Of a DNA stretch of 64,000 nucleotides, positions 36,551 through 41,733 are shown one piece after another; the first letter of the stretch is position 1; each line of letters opens with the position of its first letter. The translations under genes were made by a program, and so were the position numbers. Below the pieces are notes generated by a model. It did not search any database. It had not been told where the DNA came from and worked only from the letters and a program-made list of their open reading frames with translations. This DNA comes from an uncultured Planctomycetales bacterium (GTDB taxonomy: Bacteria; Omnitrophota; Gorgyraeia; Gygaellales; Profunditerraquicolaceae), in the NCBI GenBank assembly GCA_964545575.1, contig CAZJFL010000007.1, positions 31,848 through 95,847 of the forward strand. The letters run 5' to 3'.

Positions 36551-37639
36551 TTATAACATTTTAGTGAATTTTTTTAAGGCGCTGTTTACCTCATTGAACC
36601 CGGGCGAGGCCGGACAATACTGTAGCCCCATAATTTTAAGTTTTTTGCTCTCTATTTCCTCAACGCTACGGTCATTCAGATTATAGCCGGTAATTTTTAC
36701 TGCTTTAATTTTGTTGAGCGAATCTCTGTCCACCACAAAGGCATGGTTCTGCACCGTGATTTCGCCCTTGTAGGACGCAGGATGCGCCATAGGATAATTT
36801 ACTCCGCGGTGCCCCAGCCTCATCTTGACGATTTTTGCCCCTAAGGCACGCGCTAAAACCTGATGCCCGGTAGAAATTCCCAGTATCGGCAGCCGCCCAA
36901 TCAGCGGTTTAAGGTTATCTGCCACCTCTTCCAAAGCAACATCTTCCTCTGGTCCGCCAGATATAATCAGGCCATCCGGCTTCAGGCGCGCTATCTCTTG
37001 CGCTTTGGTATTATAAGGCAACAGCACCAGGCCCAAGCCCAGCGTTTCCAGCTGGTTAATAGTGCTTTGCGTTACTCCCAAATCCAAAACCGCGATTTTG
37101 CGTCTGGCTTTTTTTGCGCCCAGATGTTCGGGCTTAGCCACGGAAATTTCCGGCAATAAACTTTTTTGTTTTTCTTTACGGAAATTACTTATTTTGGCGA
37201 AAAGGCTTTTTGCTTCCAAGTCGCGCACGGAAATAATCCCGAGCATCTCTCCCTTTTGTCTTAAGTGTACGGCTAAGGTCCGGGTGTCTATTCCGGCCAA
37301 GACAGGAAGTTTATTTTCCTTAATAAAATCGTCGAAGCTCTGTTTAGCCTGCCAGTTAGAGTAGATGCGGGATTTCTCCTTGATCACCAGACCTGCCAAC
37401 CATACGCGTTTTGACTGGTTAAATTTAGGCGCGCAGCCGTAATTTCCGATTAAAGGATAAGTAAGCACCAGAATTTTCCCCGCGTTTGCCGGATCAGTCA
37501 TCATCTCCTGATAACCCACCACCGCGGTATTTAAAATCACTGCCCCGATAGCCTCGGCAGTTGCTCCCAGGCTTTCGCCGCTAAAAATCTTACCGTCTTC
37601 CAACATTAAGACTGCTTTCATTTCTTCTCCTTTGCCCAT
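36551..37639 (-). CDS. carA: Carbamoyl-phosphate synthase small (glutaminase) subunit
   Basis: A class-I glutamine amidotransferase (GATase) domain preceded by the CPSase small-subunit N-terminal domain. Confidence 0.9.
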
Positions 37640-38129
37640 ACCATAAAGCGCGGTCTTGATCCAGATTTAACTTCTCTTTCTTTAATGCCTCTTTTACCTT
37701 TTTTACCGCTTGATCCACTGTCTTGACTTTGATCACTCCCTTAATATCCCAGGAGCCTAAACTGATTACCGGGATGCCAAATTGCAGGCAGTAAGCCACT
37801 TCGGAAAGCGTTCCTGCTTCTCCCGGAAGCGCCACTACCGCATCCGCTGCCTTCACTACCAACACGTTTCTCGCTAAACCCAAGCCCGTAGGAAGGGGAA
37901 TATCCACAAAATCATTAGCATCGCTTTTGCTGTAACTCGGTATAATACCTATAGTTAGACCACCGGCGACCTTAAAACCCTGACAAACTGCCTCCATGGT
38001 ACCACTTAAGCCCCCTGAAACCAGCACATCCGCCACTTTAGCCAGTTTTTTGCCTAAATCGTGGGCTAATCGCTCCACCTCTTCCGTACATTCCCTACCG
38101 CCAATGACGCTGACAATCTTTTTACGCAT
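37590..38129 (-). CDS. TIGR00725 / LOG-like Rossmann-fold nucleotide-binding protein
   Basis: IVSVIGG...VVSGGLSGTMEAV...PGEAGTLSE. The start was moved to the MRKKIV Met at 38129, because the longer ORF would run through the repeat element and into tRNA-Arg. Confidence 0.6.
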   Translation of the reverse strand: MRKKIVSVIGGRECTEEVERLAHDLGKKLAKVADVLVSGGLSGTMEAVCQGFKVAGGLTIGIIPSYSKSDANDFVDIPLPTGLGLARNVLVVKAADAVVALPGEAGTLSEVAYCLQFGIPVISLGSWDIKGVIKVKTVDQAVKKVKEALKKEKLNLDQDRALWYGQRRRNESSLNVGRR

Positions 38130-38155
38130 CTCCCGCACAACCCTTATCTTGTCGC

Positions 38156-38230
38156 GGGACAGTCCCCGCAGGAGGCGGGGCACCAAACCATCCGATAGGT
38201 TTGGGTGCCTAACCCTTCGGGGACAGTCCC
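38156..38230. repeat. Two-hairpin ~50-nt repeat element, copy 2, flanked by palindromic GGGACAGTCCC direct repeats
   Basis: gggacagtCCCCGCAGGAGGCGGGGCACCAAACCATCCGATAGGTTTGGGTGCCTAACCcttcggggacagtccc. Confidence 0.55.
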
Positions 38231-38251
38231 TAGCTGCAGTACGTATTATAA

Positions 38252-38326
38252 TGGTGCGCCTGGTGGGAATCGAACCCACACACCCAGCTCCGGAGGCTGG
38301 TGCCCTATCCATTGGGCCACAGGCGC
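38252..38326 (-). tRNA. tRNA-Arg (anticodon CCG)
   Basis: The reverse complement reads GCGCCTGTGGCCCAATGGATAGGGCACCAGCCTCCGGAGCTGG...GGTTCGATTCCCACCAGGCGCACCA. CCA is encoded. Confidence 0.85.
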
Positions 38327-38797: not shown

Positions 38798-41347
38798 TTA
38801 AAATAAACTTAACTGCTCCTCGTCTTTATGCTCTTTTTCTTCGTCGCCGAAGATGGAAATTATCCCGTATTCTCCGTCGAAACCGGCCTTGATATTGACT
38901 TGTGCCTGGCGCACCCTGAAAACTCCCTCTGCCACGCGCGCAGGCAACCCTTTTAACAAATCCTCCTTAGAAGCACGCAGCAGGATTTCAAATTCCGTGC
39001 CGAACCTGGCTACTACGTTGCGATACTCTCTTTCTACGGCCAGCGAATTTTTGCCCACCCCTCTTGCCTCGGCAATAATCTCATCCAGCGGAATCAGGTG
39101 TTTAAAGGGGATTACTCCTGAAGGGGCATAGCCTTCGGGACGATCCGCTAGCTGCTCTACGCGGTTCATTACCCCGACAGTCACGGGCTTACCGCACTTC
39201 GGGCATCTGCCATTGTGAGCTTTGGTTTCCTTTGGCGACCAGCGCACTCCGCATAAGCGGTGGCCGTCGAAATGGTATTTGCCCTCTTCAGGAAAAAATT
39301 CGATGGTATATAAAAATCTGGATTTATCCTTGGTCCTGAGCACCTCTCTGATAGTTTTATAATTTAACTCACAATTAAATACATTTGCCTCCCGCCCGAT
39401 TTTAGAAGGAGAGTGGGCATCGCTATTAGATATCAGACTAAATCTATCTAACGCGCTGAGCCTCCAATTCATGGCAGGATCCGACGATAAACCTGTTTCC
39501 CCCGCAAATATTTTTGGGGTTTGCTTCTCAAAACAATCCTCTATTCTATCAAACCCGGACATTGAACCAAATAAAGAAAACCACGGTGTCCAGCAATTAT
39601 GAACAGCTGCAAATTCACAGACATAAGAATTATCATCTTCTACCTCTAAATTATATACGATGCCTTTATATTCTTTCTTTGTAATTGTCCGGACTGGCAA
39701 GTATGCATAATTATTATCTATCCAGCCGTGCCTAGCGGTCAATTTGGTTTTAAATTTTTTAAATAAGCCTTTTTTTAACAAATTAAATTTGTCTTCGAAA
39801 AAAGAAAGATTACTAAATTGAAAAAGATTATACTTTGCCGATATTCTCCTAGTTCCTATAAAATGCTTTCCGCGATTGTTATACTTCTCTATAGAATCTA
39901 CGCCTATCGATGGAATAATGCCTAGTTTTAAAAATATGATTTTCATTTGATTCATTAAATTCCTTGAAACAGTATAACCTTTATCACCAGCCCACCAACT
40001 TTTGATAATCTCTACCTGTTTTTGAAGTGGCAGGTTTAACATCCAATCCGGCAAAGACTTGGAATGCGCCTTTTTTGCTTTAACACTTGTATAGAATAAC
40101 CGGCTAAATAATTCATATAAAACTTTGGAATAGAAAATTAATTCTATTCCTTTTATATCTTTTTTAACCTGTTTTTTTGATAATCCGACGCCAAAGATTT
40201 TTTTCATTAAATCTATAACATCTTTTATGTATTCGCCCTCACTTTCCAAGAAACAAAACGCAACGCAATCTCTACCGTTTGTATACCCTTCAGAAACGAA
40301 ATATCCTGCAAGTCTACAGAAATTTTTATCAATATCGATATGGTTATTTATAAAATTAACCTTCGTCCCATGATAAGCTATTTTGTCTTTCTTTAAAATA
40401 AAATTTCCCAGTATCAATTTATTGATTTGTATCTCCTTTTTGTCTATGATTTGGCCATTAAACCTTGGAAAAATCATAATATCGCCTATTTCTATATCTT
40501 TAGCTTGGACCCATTGGGGATAATATTTATTAAAGAATTTACGCTTACAACCTTTATATTTTAACTGGGAGCAGTTTGGCATACAAAAACTGCCTCGTGA
40601 TGCACAATTTTTATAGGTTTTTATTAAATAAAAAGGGTGCTCCGGAGTGACTTTTATACCTTCTCGAAAATAATAAGGTTTTACATGAAATATGGGCCCC
40701 TCGTATTTTCTTTGTAATGATTGGGTTATCTTCTTAAATCTCATTTTATGAGTGTATGCATAATCTCTGACCGCGATATCTTTTATTGGTTTTAATCCTT
40801 TGCTGGTGTGTACCATTGTATCCGGCAAAAGACAATGGGCCGGGATGACCATGCAATTCTCGTCAATATCAAAAACTATCCGCGCCAGTTCTGATGCGTC
40901 CATCCCCAGTATCGGCCGGCCGTCTGAGGCTAAATTGCCGTGCCTGGCGAGCACTTCATTGATTTTGTCGGTGGTCTTAAAAGAAGGGCTGATCACCATG
41001 TTGTGGATACGGTAGCCCTTGCCGCCTTTGGAATAAATGCTGCTGATCTCAGAGGTTAAAATAAAATAAACCTCTTTGTACTTAAATAACCCGCTGCCTA
41101 AATCCTCCAAATTGTTTTTGAGCTCCTCCAGCCATAAATGATGGGTAAAATCGCCGGTGCCCATCAAGGTAATGCCTTTTAGCTTTGCCCACTCGGCAAT
41201 ATGCTGAATATCCATATCGCGCGATGTGGCGCGCGAATATTTGGAATGAATGTGGAAATCAGCGATAAATTCCATTACTTCATTATCTCCTCTAAAGTTT
41301 TCTCGACATTTCCCCAATGCGTGCCCTGCCAATAAATCCGGTTGCAT
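38798..41347 (-). CDS. PHP-domain nuclease (endonuclease-Q-like) interrupted by an intein; extein about 436 aa
   Basis: PHP-like FHIHSKYS at the N-terminus and a zinc ribbon CPKCGKPV in the C-extein. The extein length matches EndoQ-type proteins. Total length 849 aa. Confidence 0.5.
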   Translation of the reverse strand: MQPDLLAGHALGKCRENFRGDNEVMEFIADFHIHSKYSRATSRDMDIQHIAEWAKLKGITLMGTGDFTHHLWLEELKNNLEDLGSGLFKYKEVYFILTSEISSIYSKGGKGYRIHNMVISPSFKTTDKINEVLARHGNLASDGRPILGMDASELARIVFDIDENCMVIPAHCLLPDTMVHTSKGLKPIKDIAVRDYAYTHKMRFKKITQSLQRKYEGPIFHVKPYYFREGIKVTPEHPFYLIKTYKNCASRGSFCMPNCSQLKYKGCKRKFFNKYYPQWVQAKDIEIGDIMIFPRFNGQIIDKKEIQINKLILGNFILKKDKIAYHGTKVNFINNHIDIDKNFCRLAGYFVSEGYTNGRDCVAFCFLESEGEYIKDVIDLMKKIFGVGLSKKQVKKDIKGIELIFYSKVLYELFSRLFYTSVKAKKAHSKSLPDWMLNLPLQKQVEIIKSWWAGDKGYTVSRNLMNQMKIIFLKLGIIPSIGVDSIEKYNNRGKHFIGTRRISAKYNLFQFSNLSFFEDKFNLLKKGLFKKFKTKLTARHGWIDNNYAYLPVRTITKKEYKGIVYNLEVEDDNSYVCEFAAVHNCWTPWFSLFGSMSGFDRIEDCFEKQTPKIFAGETGLSSDPAMNWRLSALDRFSLISNSDAHSPSKIGREANVFNCELNYKTIREVLRTKDKSRFLYTIEFFPEEGKYHFDGHRLCGVRWSPKETKAHNGRCPKCGKPVTVGVMNRVEQLADRPEGYAPSGVIPFKHLIPLDEIIAEARGVGKNSLAVEREYRNVVARFGTEFEILLRASKEDLLKGLPARVAEGVFRVRQAQVNIKAGFDGEYGIISIFGDEEKEHKDEEQLSLF
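39596..40834 (-). mobile_element. Intein (413 aa) with LAGLIDADG-type homing endonuclease
   Basis: Splice-junction signature ...VIPAH|CLLPDTMV...AAVHN|CWTPW (Cys1, terminal HN, +1 Cys) and a LAGYFVSEGY DOD motif. Confidence 0.7.
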
Positions 41348-41733
41348 TTGGGGCAGGTGATAAAATCTTTTTGGGTCTTGAAAACATATTCCGGAACTTT
41401 ATCCTTTATTTTCTCTTTCTCAACGGCAACCAGCCCTACATTACACAGCAGGCAACGCGTAAACATCATGCTTTTGTCCGGGATAATCTCCAATTTTTTT
41501 ATTACCTCCGCTACCTGCTCCTTGATTTTCTCCGCCTCCAGCAGCACTATTTTTAAACCCCTGGATTTGGGCAAATGCGAATTACGGCTTAAAATGATGC
41601 GCTCATCTCTTAAGGCCTGGATGATCAAAGAGCCGGGATTATTTTCGGGAAAATACTCAGCATCAAACCCGAGCAGTCTTAGCCATTTCACTAGCCTGCC
41701 TAATTCCTGAGTCAGGATAAAGCGCATGGACAA
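41275..41733 (-). CDS. Mut7-C RNase-domain protein (DUF82; PIN-like plus zinc ribbon)
   Basis: RFILTQELGRLVKWLRLLGFDA... and CPKCNRIYW. Confidence 0.6.
   Translation of the reverse strand: MSMRFILTQELGRLVKWLRLLGFDAEYFPENNPGSLIIQALRDERIILSRNSHLPKSRGLKIVLLEAEKIKEQVAEVIKKLEIIPDKSMMFTRCLLCNVGLVAVEKEKIKDKVPEYVFKTQKDFITCPKCNRIYWQGTHWGNVEKTLEEIMK

Follow-up and report, generated by a model that had tools for sequence, protein, structure and literature searches.

Described relatives of the intein and its host

The closest described system is the Mja hyp1 intein of Methanocaldococcus jannaschii, which lies in MJ0043 (Swiss-Prot Q60348). It is 392 aa long, and its junctions read LIGPAH|CVPPDT...TLHN|CFTPW. 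Its archaeal host was 'hypothetical' when the intein was catalogued. The extein of MJ0043 is 52% identical to the endonuclease Q (EndoQ) of Pyrococcus furiosus (PfuEndoQ). We take this intein to be the one listed in InBase as Mja Hyp-1.

Thermococcales EndoQ proteins carry an intein at the same site (Thermococcus barophilus CH5 ALM74405.1 and Thermococcus litoralis DSM 5473 EHR78075.1). The T. litoralis protein is named 'Mja hyp1 intein'. These hosts are archaeal family-1 EndoQ, with an extein closely orthologous (73%) to PfuEndoQ, which is characterised both biochemically and structurally. The RefSeq models of the Thermococcales genes are truncated proteins that start inside the intein. Among the papers searched, none connects an intein with EndoQ, MJ0043 or TIGR00375, so that what was known before comes from database records (Swiss-Prot Q60348 and NCBI names).

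The metal-ligand roles of the PfuEndoQ residues used below are taken from PMC5961232. H139 is a Zn ligand, and the H139A substitution nearly abolishes activity (PMC5961232). T142 sits in the lesion pocket (PMC5961232).

We analysed a stretch of DNA of 64,000 nt (the window) from an Omnitrophota-type bacterium. It contains an intein at the same EndoQ site, with junctions VIPAH|C...HN|CWTPW. This intein is an allele of Mja hyp1, and so a bacterial member of a known element. Its full-length alignment with the MJ0043 intein has 422 columns at 38.6% identity (E 2e-82). The two exteins are 34% identical, so that the inteins are at least as similar as their hosts. The T. barophilus intein is 37% identical to the window intein (E 6e-89). 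The window intein shares with Mja hyp1 the block order, the acidic residues of the LAGLIDADG motifs, a cluster of four Cys, the +1 Cys and the insertion site. It differs in host and in length: it has 413 aa, with a longer segment before LAGLIDADG motif 1, and the Thermococcales intein has 398 aa. MJ0043 was reached via T. barophilus, and the best 80 loci of the genome-contig scan included neither M. jannaschii nor the genome of the window itself.

A sequence-only reading of this DNA had left the allele and the conservation of its insertion site to comparison with intein collections. These are now identified as Mja hyp1 and the identical site. The same reading had called an EndoQ host unusual, and this does not hold. 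Besides MJ0043 and Thermococcus, the same-site intein is carried by Methanocaldococcus spp., Palaeococcus and DPANN archaeal MAGs, and it occurs in >100 Omnitrophota and CPR protein clusters. The host also fits the known bias of inteins toward replication and repair genes, since EndoQ is itself a DNA-repair enzyme, defined by incision directly 5' of deaminated or abasic nucleotides. Some CPR homologs have an additional insertion site, behind the other catalytic His.

Overall, we read the gene as the EndoQ ortholog of a Candidatus Omnitrophota-type bacterium whose PHP domain is split by a 413-aa bifunctional class-1 intein, the Mja hyp1 allele. We put the probability of this reading at about 0.93.

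The host gene and its predicted spliced product

The features of the host gene are as follows.

38798..41275, minus strand: EndoQ::intein precursor gene, 825 aa, from M25 of the maximal ORF to the stop (ORF, start-site context, identical database protein and homolog starts)
41276..41347, minus strand: 5' extension of the maximal ORF, 24 codons, outside the gene (inside the upstream Mut7-C gene, in another frame)
40835..41275, minus strand: N-extein, 147 aa, first half of the PHP domain, ending at the Zn-ligand His in VIPAH (PfuEndoQ alignment and invariant columns)
38798..39595, minus strand: C-extein, 265 aa plus stop, beginning with the +1 Cys nucleophile of CWTPW (PfuEndoQ alignment)

The ORF listing of the window gives a maximal ORF of 849 aa at 38798..41347 on the minus strand. 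It contains an FHIHSKYS motif and a C-terminal CPKCG zinc ribbon, and its reading frame is intact. The sequence-only reading had described this ORF, its 413-aa insert, both splice junctions, the LAGYFVSEGY motif, FHIHSKYS and the zinc ribbon, and all are present as it gave them. The true start is M25, with the ATG at 41275, giving an 825-aa precursor. This ATG overlaps the stop codon of the upstream Mut7-C gene (TAATG), and a GAGGAG lies 11 nt upstream. M[EK]FIADFH is the start of all homologs and of P0001, the 825-aa database protein identical to this one. The gene thus excludes the first 24 codons of the ORF, and the extein has 412 aa. The earlier figure of about 436 aa follows from the 849-aa ORF, whose start lies 24 codons too far upstream. 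Contigs of four separate metagenome samples encode the identical protein. The closest intein-less ortholog (P0123, 92%) shares the gene order pyrC - Mut7-C - EndoQ - flavodoxin - LDcluster4 - carA - carB.

Over its full length and without a gap at the junction, the spliced extein of 412 aa can be aligned with PfuEndoQ (5ZB8; E 1.5e-54). The alignment spans the PHP domain, the Zn ribbon and the C-terminal helical domain, and it passes CPKCG to reach the C terminus (Pfu residue 383). This full architecture is that of PfuEndoQ (PDB 5ZB8 and 7K30) and of the bacterial EndoQ of Bacillus pumilus. The N-extein contains the counterparts of the Pfu metal ligands H8, H10, E76 and H84, and its terminal His is equivalent to Pfu H139. 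The C-extein contains SNSDAHS (Pfu D193 and H195), the Zn ribbon (H-C...CxxC) and the C-terminal helical domain. All seven Pfu metal ligands (H8, H10, E76, H84, H139, D193 and H195) are invariant in alignment A2, which includes the Pfu sequence. The equivalents of the lesion-pocket residues T142, E167, G169, N191 and D193 are conserved in the extein, and T142 corresponds to the Thr of CWTPW.

Among the differences from PfuEndoQ, the first Zn-ribbon ligand is His in the bacterial sequences (GHRLC) and Cys in PfuEndoQ (ACSRC). The +1 residue after splicing is Cys here, Ala in Pfu and Ile in most intein-less Omnitrophota alleles.

Intein-less matches to the spliced extein number >100 proteins, with 81-92% identity and 100% coverage, and nearly all have 412 aa. 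NCBI gives many of them the name 'endonuclease Q family protein [Ca. Omnitrophota]'. Close orthologs are labelled TIGR00375 / endonuclease Q family by both JGI and NCBI.

The extein could instead be a PHP-domain phosphoesterase other than EndoQ, for example a histidinol-phosphatase-like or Pol X-type PHP enzyme. We consider this very unlikely. It draws on the 33% identity to PfuEndoQ, on a Pfam result limited to a weak PHP_C match, and on TIGR00375 scores of 196 bits (spliced) and 236 bits (precursor), which miss the curated cut-off of 326.6. Against it stand the alignment of all three PfuEndoQ domains, the conserved metal-ligand and lesion-pocket residues and the NCBI names of the intein-less orthologs. 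The TIGR00375 miss is given little weight because the model appears to be contaminated by intein sequence. It also matches the C-terminal half of the intein (38.8 bits), and in Methanocaldococcus and Thermococcus the RefSeq proteins of the 'TIGR00375 family' begin within the intein. The model thus probably carries intein-derived columns. An internal duplication of the host gene was considered as the source of the match within the intein and was rejected on the evidence of these RefSeq members. The EndoQ identity of the host, which the sequence-only reading had proposed from the PHP-like motif and the zinc ribbon, is upheld by the full-length PfuEndoQ alignment. In the profile comparison that it suggested, TIGR00375 stays under its cut-off.

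The intein

The intein comprises the following features.

39596..40834, minus strand: intein, 413 aa, Cys1 to Asn413, a class-1 Hint domain split by a LAGLIDADG (DOD) endonuclease (junctions, profiles, alignment and fold)
40631..40651, minus strand: splicing block B, VTPEHPF, T63-x-x-H66 (invariant residues)
40547..40606, minus strand: Cys cluster C77-x6-C84-x3-C88-x7-C96, between block B and the endonuclease domain (conservation in 119 inteins)
40280..40318, minus strand: LAGLIDADG motif 1, FCRLAGYFVSEGY, catalytic E182 (E182 in 119/119; aligns to PI-PkoII block C)
39974..40009, minus strand: LAGLIDADG motif 2, IKSWWAGDKGYT, catalytic D284 (D284 in 119/119)
39596..39658, minus strand: splicing blocks F and G, VYNLEVEDDNSYVCEFAAVHN, ending His412-Asn413 (align to PI-PkoII)

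The junctions are VIPAH|C at residues 171/172 and VHN|CWTPW at residues 584/585 of the 849-aa ORF. The GC content of the insert is 31.5% (0.315), against 0.46 and 0.475 in the flanks. Removal of the insert restores a gap-free full-length alignment to PfuEndoQ and to the 412-aa intein-less orthologs. Together with the GC drop, this places the insert far beyond chance.

We compared 119 intein homologs from two domains of life, with 46-100% identity and lengths of 403-439 aa. C1, H66, E182, D284, H412 and N413 are each present in 119/119. Alignment A1 shows no variation at T63, E65, H66 and P67 of block B. The +1 Cys that follows blocks F and G (VYNLEVEDDNSYVCEFAAVHN) is found in all intein-bearing homologs. 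There are 111 columns conserved at >=90% among the 119 inteins, and the window copy deviates at 5 of them. This is within the family range, and decay of the window copy was rejected on this basis.

PF14890 (Intein_splicing) scores 35.3 bits at the expected place, against a cut-off of 35.8. TIGR01445 (19.9 against 24.5) and TIGR01443 (13.2 against 15.6) match at the expected intein ends. Because these models, like TIGR00375, fall below their curated cut-offs, the family assignment rests on profile, fold and pairwise evidence. A profile search matched the intein to PI-PkoII (E 7.6e-12) and to the Mja KlbA intein (5.8e-4). The AF2 model has a pLDDT of 89.7, and its best Foldseek matches are TliVMA (1e-19), PI-PkoII (1.3e-18), PI-SceI (1e-13) and PI-PfuI (1.5e-9). 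It also matches the Hint fold of the Prp8, gp41-1 and DnaB mini-inteins. PI-PkoII, TliVMA/PhoVMA, PI-SceI and PI-PfuI likewise combine a Hint splicing domain with a LAGLIDADG endonuclease, and the mechanism of splicing and homing is presumably of the same class-1 type (Foldseek 1e-19 to 1.5e-9). They differ in their hosts (DNA polymerase, V-ATPase and ribonucleotide reductase) and have just 9-18% identity. A tblastn search of the 64,000-nt window with the intein found its own copy alone.

The motif cores are LAGYFVSEG (E182) and SWWAGDKG (D284). W280, W281 and G283 of motif 2 do not vary. Next to the catalytic D284, where the 90% consensus is WWRGD, the window copy has R282A, and its endonuclease activity could be reduced through this change. 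Foldseek matched the endonuclease domain to I-DmoI (2.7e-4), I-Tsp061I (1.8e-4) and the endonuclease domains of PI-SceI and PI-PfuI. These matches and the secondary-structure pattern of the AF2 model agree with the pseudo-dimeric alpha-beta-beta-alpha-beta-beta-alpha fold. PF14528 (LAGLIDADG_3) scores 20.5 bits in the window copy, against a cut-off of 22.5, and many homologs have a precomputed PF14528 match.

The cluster has all four Cys in 93/119 inteins and is also kept in those of Mja and Tba. His replaces C88 in 10 sequences and C77 in 3; the segment is absent in 12. The cluster may form a structural metal site. It is not known to occur in PI-PkoII, TliVMA/PhoVMA, PI-SceI and PI-PfuI.

We identify the insert as a canonical class-1 intein that carries a LAGLIDADG endonuclease; a LAGLIDADG intein had been proposed from its junctions and motif. 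Among the 119 homologs, splicing blocks A, B, F and G are invariant, as are the two acidic residues of the LAGLIDADG motifs, and the predicted fold matches that of endonuclease-containing inteins. We find it scarcely credible that it is a non-splicing domain or a gene fusion, for example a free-standing LAGLIDADG ORF fused in frame, with the 825-aa protein as the mature product or as a pseudogene. Such a reading could point to the curated Pfam and NCBIfam intein models, which are just under their gathering cut-offs. It would leave unexplained the invariance of C1, T63xxH66, H412-N413 and the +1 Cys. The predicted Hint fold wraps the endonuclease domain, and the top structural matches are exclusively bona fide inteins. 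The insert parts a Zn ligand from the lesion pocket, which is irreconcilable with a functional unspliced enzyme. The reading is further opposed by the intact frame, the occurrence of the identical protein in four metagenome samples and the strong conservation of the extein, which is 84-85% identical to other intein-bearing alleles.

Predicted splicing, possible mobility and significance

The insertion point lies directly after the Zn-coordinating His (the Pfu H139 equivalent) and three residues before the lesion-pocket Thr. Because the active site is split in this way, the 825-aa precursor should be translated in an inactive form and stay so until splicing. The steps of splicing are predicted from the conserved residues and from homology. 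Splicing would start with an N-S acyl shift at Cys1, followed by trans-thioesterification by the +1 Cys and cyclisation of Asn413 with the assistance of His412. An S-N shift would then join the exteins, giving a 412-aa EndoQ with the sequence ...PAH-CWTPW... Once released, the intein would act as a LAGLIDADG homing endonuclease with catalytic E182 and D284. Its expected targets are intein-less EndoQ alleles, at the sequence coding for the conserved P-G/A-H|x-W-T-P-W. The empty-site sequence proposed for cleavage is ...CCCGGGCAT|ATCTGGACGCCGTGGTTT... The intein copy would then spread by double-strand-break repair, with co-conversion of flanking extein DNA. The empty-site sequence from locus L085 is ...ATGATTGTTCCCGGGCAT|ATCTGGACGCCGTGGTTTAGC..., and the spliced-allele sequence is ...GTCATCCCGGCCCAT|TGCTGGACACCGTGGTTT...

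Several observations bear on mobility. The closest extein relatives are intein-less (92% identity, against at most 85% for intein-bearing ones), and the intein is patchy among near-identical exteins and close relatives. Alleles with and without the intein are told apart only by the -2 Ala and the +1 Cys. Relative to its closest empty counterpart, the window allele diverges by 25.0% up to 180 nt from the junction and by 14.3% beyond this distance (p = 1.6e-5, a single locus pair). With synonymous changes alone, the same test on this pair gives p = 8.7e-6. The raised divergence near the junction resembles a co-conversion tract and may be one. Homologs whose extein is closer to that of the window also tend to have a closer intein (r = 0.88), so that vertical inheritance with loss, and not continued homing, could account for much of the distribution. 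The IMG/VR contigs yielded no EndoQ relative, and so no phage carrier can be proposed.

The intein may also be decaying or domesticated, with splicing kept for host function, an inactive endonuclease, and vertical inheritance as its only route. We think this unlikely. The covariation of extein and intein identities is what vertical descent would give, and R282A beside the catalytic Asp and the lack of a viral or plasmid vector among our finds fit with it as well. However, both LAGLIDADG acidic residues are kept, and the 111 columns conserved at >=90% extend across the endonuclease domain in the 119 sequences. Such conservation at 46-100% identity in two domains of life indicates purifying selection on the endonuclease. 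An immobile element also sits poorly with the empty alleles as closest relatives, the patchy occurrence, the raised synonymous divergence around the junction and the complete lack of mini-inteins (0/119, with lengths of 403-439 aa).

Beyond the bifunctional intein itself, a wider reading would have one allele, aimed at the invariant catalytic motif PxH|xxTPW of EndoQ, moving between Archaea (Methanococcales, Thermococcales and DPANN) and Bacteria that are ultra-small or uncultured (Omnitrophota and CPR), with the conserved CX6CX3CX7C module as a new Zn-dependent DNA-recognition or redox-sensing element. We regard this as speculative and unlikely. If it is true, splicing, and hence EndoQ activity, could be conditionally controlled, given the redox and metal sensitivity of Cys1, the +1 Cys and the four cluster Cys.

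The value of the finding is mostly for annotation, and it leaves the current understanding of inteins and of EndoQ unchanged. Through it, the 'hypothetical' protein once recorded as host of the Mja hyp1 intein is connected with endonuclease Q. The finding also shows that this allele is common in Omnitrophota and CPR bacteria, besides archaea. A recurring annotation error is exposed: archaeal RefSeq models start inside the intein, and TIGR00375 seems to have absorbed intein sequence, which lowers the scores of genuine EndoQ proteins. The gene is a textbook case of an intein at a catalytic residue, the Zn-ligand His. Empty alleles occur in the same gene order, and with the intein-linked substitutions at -2 (Ala) and +1 (Cys) they provide a ready system for the study of homing and co-conversion in uncultured bacteria.

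The gene and its host protein

The sequence-only reading had described an 849-aa ORF in which a 413-aa insert interrupts 436 aa of flanking sequence. These lengths, the coordinates and both junctions were reproduced exactly. A script placed the junctions at residues 171/172 (VIPAH|C) and 584/585 (VHN|CWTPW), leaving flanks of 171 and 265 aa. The GC content was 31.5% in the insert and 46.2% and 47.5% in the flanks, a sharp break in composition.

Features of the gene and its surroundings
38798..41347, minus strand: maximal ORF, 849 aa (ORF listing)
38798..41275, minus strand: EndoQ::intein precursor gene, 825 aa (Met25 start)
39596..40834, minus strand: intein insert, 413 aa (junctions placed by script)
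41275..41733, minus strand: upstream Mut7-C/DUF82 gene region (TAATG overlap with the EndoQ gene)
38252..38326, minus strand: tRNA-Arg(CCG) gene, downstream of EndoQ between the flavodoxin and TIGR00725/LDcluster4 genes

The extent of the gene did not stand. The true start is Met25 (ATG at 41275), so that the gene spans 38798..41275 and the extein is 412 aa, not 436 aa. This ATG overlaps the TAA stop of the Mut7-C gene (TAATG), and GAGGAG lies 11 nt 5' of it. The N terminus M[EK]FIADFH is common to all aligned homologs, and an identical database protein (P0001) is 825 aa long. The identical protein is already in public databases without a name. It is encoded on contigs of four separate metagenome samples.

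The host protein is an endonuclease Q (EndoQ), in line with the PHP-domain assignment already made, and that structural interpretation was correct. The extein, spliced in silico, aligned to Pyrococcus furiosus EndoQ (PfuEndoQ; 5ZB8, 7K30) with an E value of 1.5e-54 (residues 5-396 of 412). The junction region aligned without gaps (VIPAH|CWTPW versus IGPAH|AFTPW in Pfu). In the joint alignment including Pfu, the equivalents of Pfu H8, H10, E76, H84, H139, D193 and H195 were invariant. The extein also keeps the Zn ribbon and the C-terminal domain. The first Zn-ribbon ligand is His in the extein and Cys in Pfu. Precomputed Pfam annotation assigns the host to PF27218 (MJ0043_C). NCBIfam TIGR00375 reached 196 bits, which is under the cut-off of that model (326.6).

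Pfu H139 coordinates the catalytic Zn2+, and H139A nearly abolishes activity; T142 lines the lesion-recognition pocket (PMC5961232). The intein thus separates a metal ligand from the lesion pocket; the T142 equivalent is at +3. We infer that the unspliced precursor could not be active.

Translational coupling (TAATG) links the EndoQ gene to the upstream gene, which encodes a Mut7-C/DUF82 PIN-like RNase domain. The EndoQ gene lies in a pyrimidine-biosynthesis neighborhood, with pyrC upstream and carA and carB downstream, an order shared by intein-less relatives. A 240-aa ORF listed at 37590..38312 overruns the tRNA-Arg(CCG) gene; the TIGR00725/LDcluster4 gene therefore starts further in.

The insert

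The insert is a canonical bifunctional intein; the sequence-only reading had called it a LAGLIDADG intein. Four profiles were correctly placed on it at scores just below cut-off: Pfam Intein_splicing (35.3 versus 35.8), Pfam LAGLIDADG_3 (20.5 versus 22.5), TIGR01445 (19.9 versus 24.5) and TIGR01443 (13.2 versus 15.6). Against the PDB, the intein as a single sequence matched PI-PkoII at 6e-5, and a 24-sequence profile matched PI-PkoII at 7.6e-12 and the Mja KlbA intein at 5.8e-4. The AlphaFold2 model had a mean pLDDT of 89.7 and a pTM of 0.89. Its top structure matches were exclusively inteins containing a homing endonuclease (TliVMA, 1e-19; PI-PkoII, 1.3e-18; PhoVMA, 3e-17; PI-SceI, 1e-13; PI-PfuI, 1.5e-9), and free-standing LAGLIDADG enzymes and mini-inteins ranked below.

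Conservation was assessed in 119 aligned intein homologs (46-100% identical). C1, H66 (block T63xxH66), H412, N413 and the catalytic acidic residues E182 (LAGLIDADG 1) and D284 (LAGLIDADG 2) were present in 119/119. The +1 residue was Cys in every intein-bearing homolog. The window intein departs from consensus at 5 of the 111 columns conserved at ≥90%, through four conservative changes and R282A (family median 3, maximum 10). Splicing would be standard class-1, and the endonuclease is probably active or was recently so, judging from these residues.

40547..40606, minus strand: CX6CX3CX7C cluster, intein residues 77-96, located in the Hint-domain insertion that separates block B from the endonuclease domain

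All four Cys of this cluster were found in 93/119 homologous inteins and also in the Mja and Tba inteins. Substitutions were mainly Cys to His (C88H in 10, C77H in 3), and 12 CPR inteins had the entire segment replaced. The pattern suggests a putative structural metal site. Solved inteins are not known to contain an equivalent.

Empty alleles and signs of mobility

The spliced extein retrieved at least 120 intein-less proteins (81-92% identity, 100% coverage), of which almost all have a length of exactly 412 aa. A name that many of them carry is [quoted passage not shown]. The closest among the matches listed (P0123, 92%) comes from the orthologous locus with an unoccupied site; both loci have the order pyrC - Mut7-C - EndoQ - flavodoxin - LDcluster4/TIGR00725 - carA - carB. 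The window thus derives from a bacterium of Omnitrophota type. Among the matches listed for intein-bearing proteins, extein identity reached only 85%. Only two of the best 80 EndoQ loci in GTDB species representatives were intein-sized (L005, Omnitrophota; L006, Woesearchaeota).

39593..39595, minus strand: +1 Cys codon of the extein (occupied alleles, PAH|..|CWTPWF; empty alleles, PGH|IWTPWF)
40838..40840, minus strand: -2 Ala codon of the extein

In the Omnitrophota clade, these are the only two of 412 extein positions that separate intein-bearing from intein-less alleles. Ala at -2 was found in 86% versus 5% (empty alleles, Gly), and Cys at +1 in 100% versus 1% (empty alleles, Ile). A single intein-less protein has PAHCWTPWF; this may be a footprint left when an intein was lost precisely, or the protein may be a permissive recipient.

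Compared with the closest empty allele, DNA divergence was 25.0% at positions up to 180 nt from the junction, versus 14.3% in the remaining sequence (Fisher p = 1.6e-5; p = 8.7e-6 for synonymous changes only; one locus pair). The excess lies in the conserved catalytic core. In this single locus pair, a co-conversion tract derived from a more remote donor would give such a pattern. Sequence change is quicker in the intein than in the extein (72% versus 84% identity to the database protein P0002). Two observations speak against ongoing mobility: the identities of extein and intein are correlated (r = 0.88), and a search of IMG/VR contigs gave no viral carrier.

The Mja hyp1 allele and EndoQ annotation

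With the full-length protein as query, at least 120 homologs long enough to hold an intein (805-1340 aa, mostly 805-873 aa) were retrieved from Omnitrophota, CPR/Patescibacteria and a few archaeal MAGs. The site was identical in every one spanning a junction, and "Mja hyp1 intein" was the annotation of one. When only the intein was used in an exhaustive profile search, 12,726 cluster representatives had E values of 1e-3 or lower; EndoQ hosts made up 22 of the best 150, and the junction-spanning ones were all at this site. One EndoQ-host cluster contains Thermococcus barophilus CH5 ALM74405.1, with an extein 73% identical to PfuEndoQ and a 398-aa intein 37% identical to that of the window (E = 6e-89).

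A search with the T. barophilus protein reached MJ0043 (P0454; AAB98023.1; Swiss-Prot Q60348, "Uncharacterized protein MJ0043; Contains: Mja hyp1 intein"). Its junctions (LIGPAH|CVPPDT...GTLHN|CFTPW) mark the same site. Over the full length, its 392-aa intein shares 38.6% identity with that of the window (E = 2e-82), and the MJ0043 extein shares 52% identity with PfuEndoQ (E = 1.7e-139). The window element is therefore a bacterial representative of the Mja hyp1 allele, and the host of that allele can now be recognized as EndoQ. The EndoQ intein also occurs in T. litoralis, M. vulcanius, M. bathoardescens, Palaeococcus and MAGs of Aenigmatarchaeota, Woesearchaeota and Nanoarchaeota. No paper stating the EndoQ-intein link was found in the literature searched.

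The host had been considered unusual. This does not hold, since the same allele occupies the same site in MJ0043, Thermococcus and many Omnitrophota and CPR, and EndoQ, as a DNA-repair enzyme, fits the usual intein bias. Novelty is likewise lost, as allele and host family are known and the identical protein is public. The window element adds a further bacterial member to an intein allele that, like its host family, was already known.

Some CPR EndoQ proteins (P0097, 1340 aa; P0117, 1331 aa) carry a second intein of ~515 aa (SNSDAH|CVHP...ITHN|SP), immediately C-terminal to the other active-site His (equivalent to Pfu H195). The number of intein sites in EndoQ is therefore at least two, and both of these follow immediately on an active-site His. 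P0053 and P0110 (~1200 aa) have yet another insert.

Many bacterial proteins of ~1000-1100 aa (among hits P0431-P0453) fuse an MJ0043_C/EndoQ-type domain to a UvrD/PcrA-type helicase. Such fusions probably explain the older name "DNA helicase UvrD" on intein-less Omnitrophota EndoQ.

Current RefSeq "TIGR00375 family protein" models of these archaeal genes are truncated ORFs whose starts fall within the intein (MJ0043 residues 327 and 362; records P0456, P0462, P0392 and P0468 from MJ0043, T. barophilus and T. litoralis). With the TIGR00375 HMM, the window intein scored 38.8 bits in its C-terminal half (profile positions 2-134), and the model probably contains intein-derived columns. Such columns, if present, would depress genuine EndoQ scores (196 bits versus a cut-off of 326.6). 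The value of the finding is mainly in annotation.
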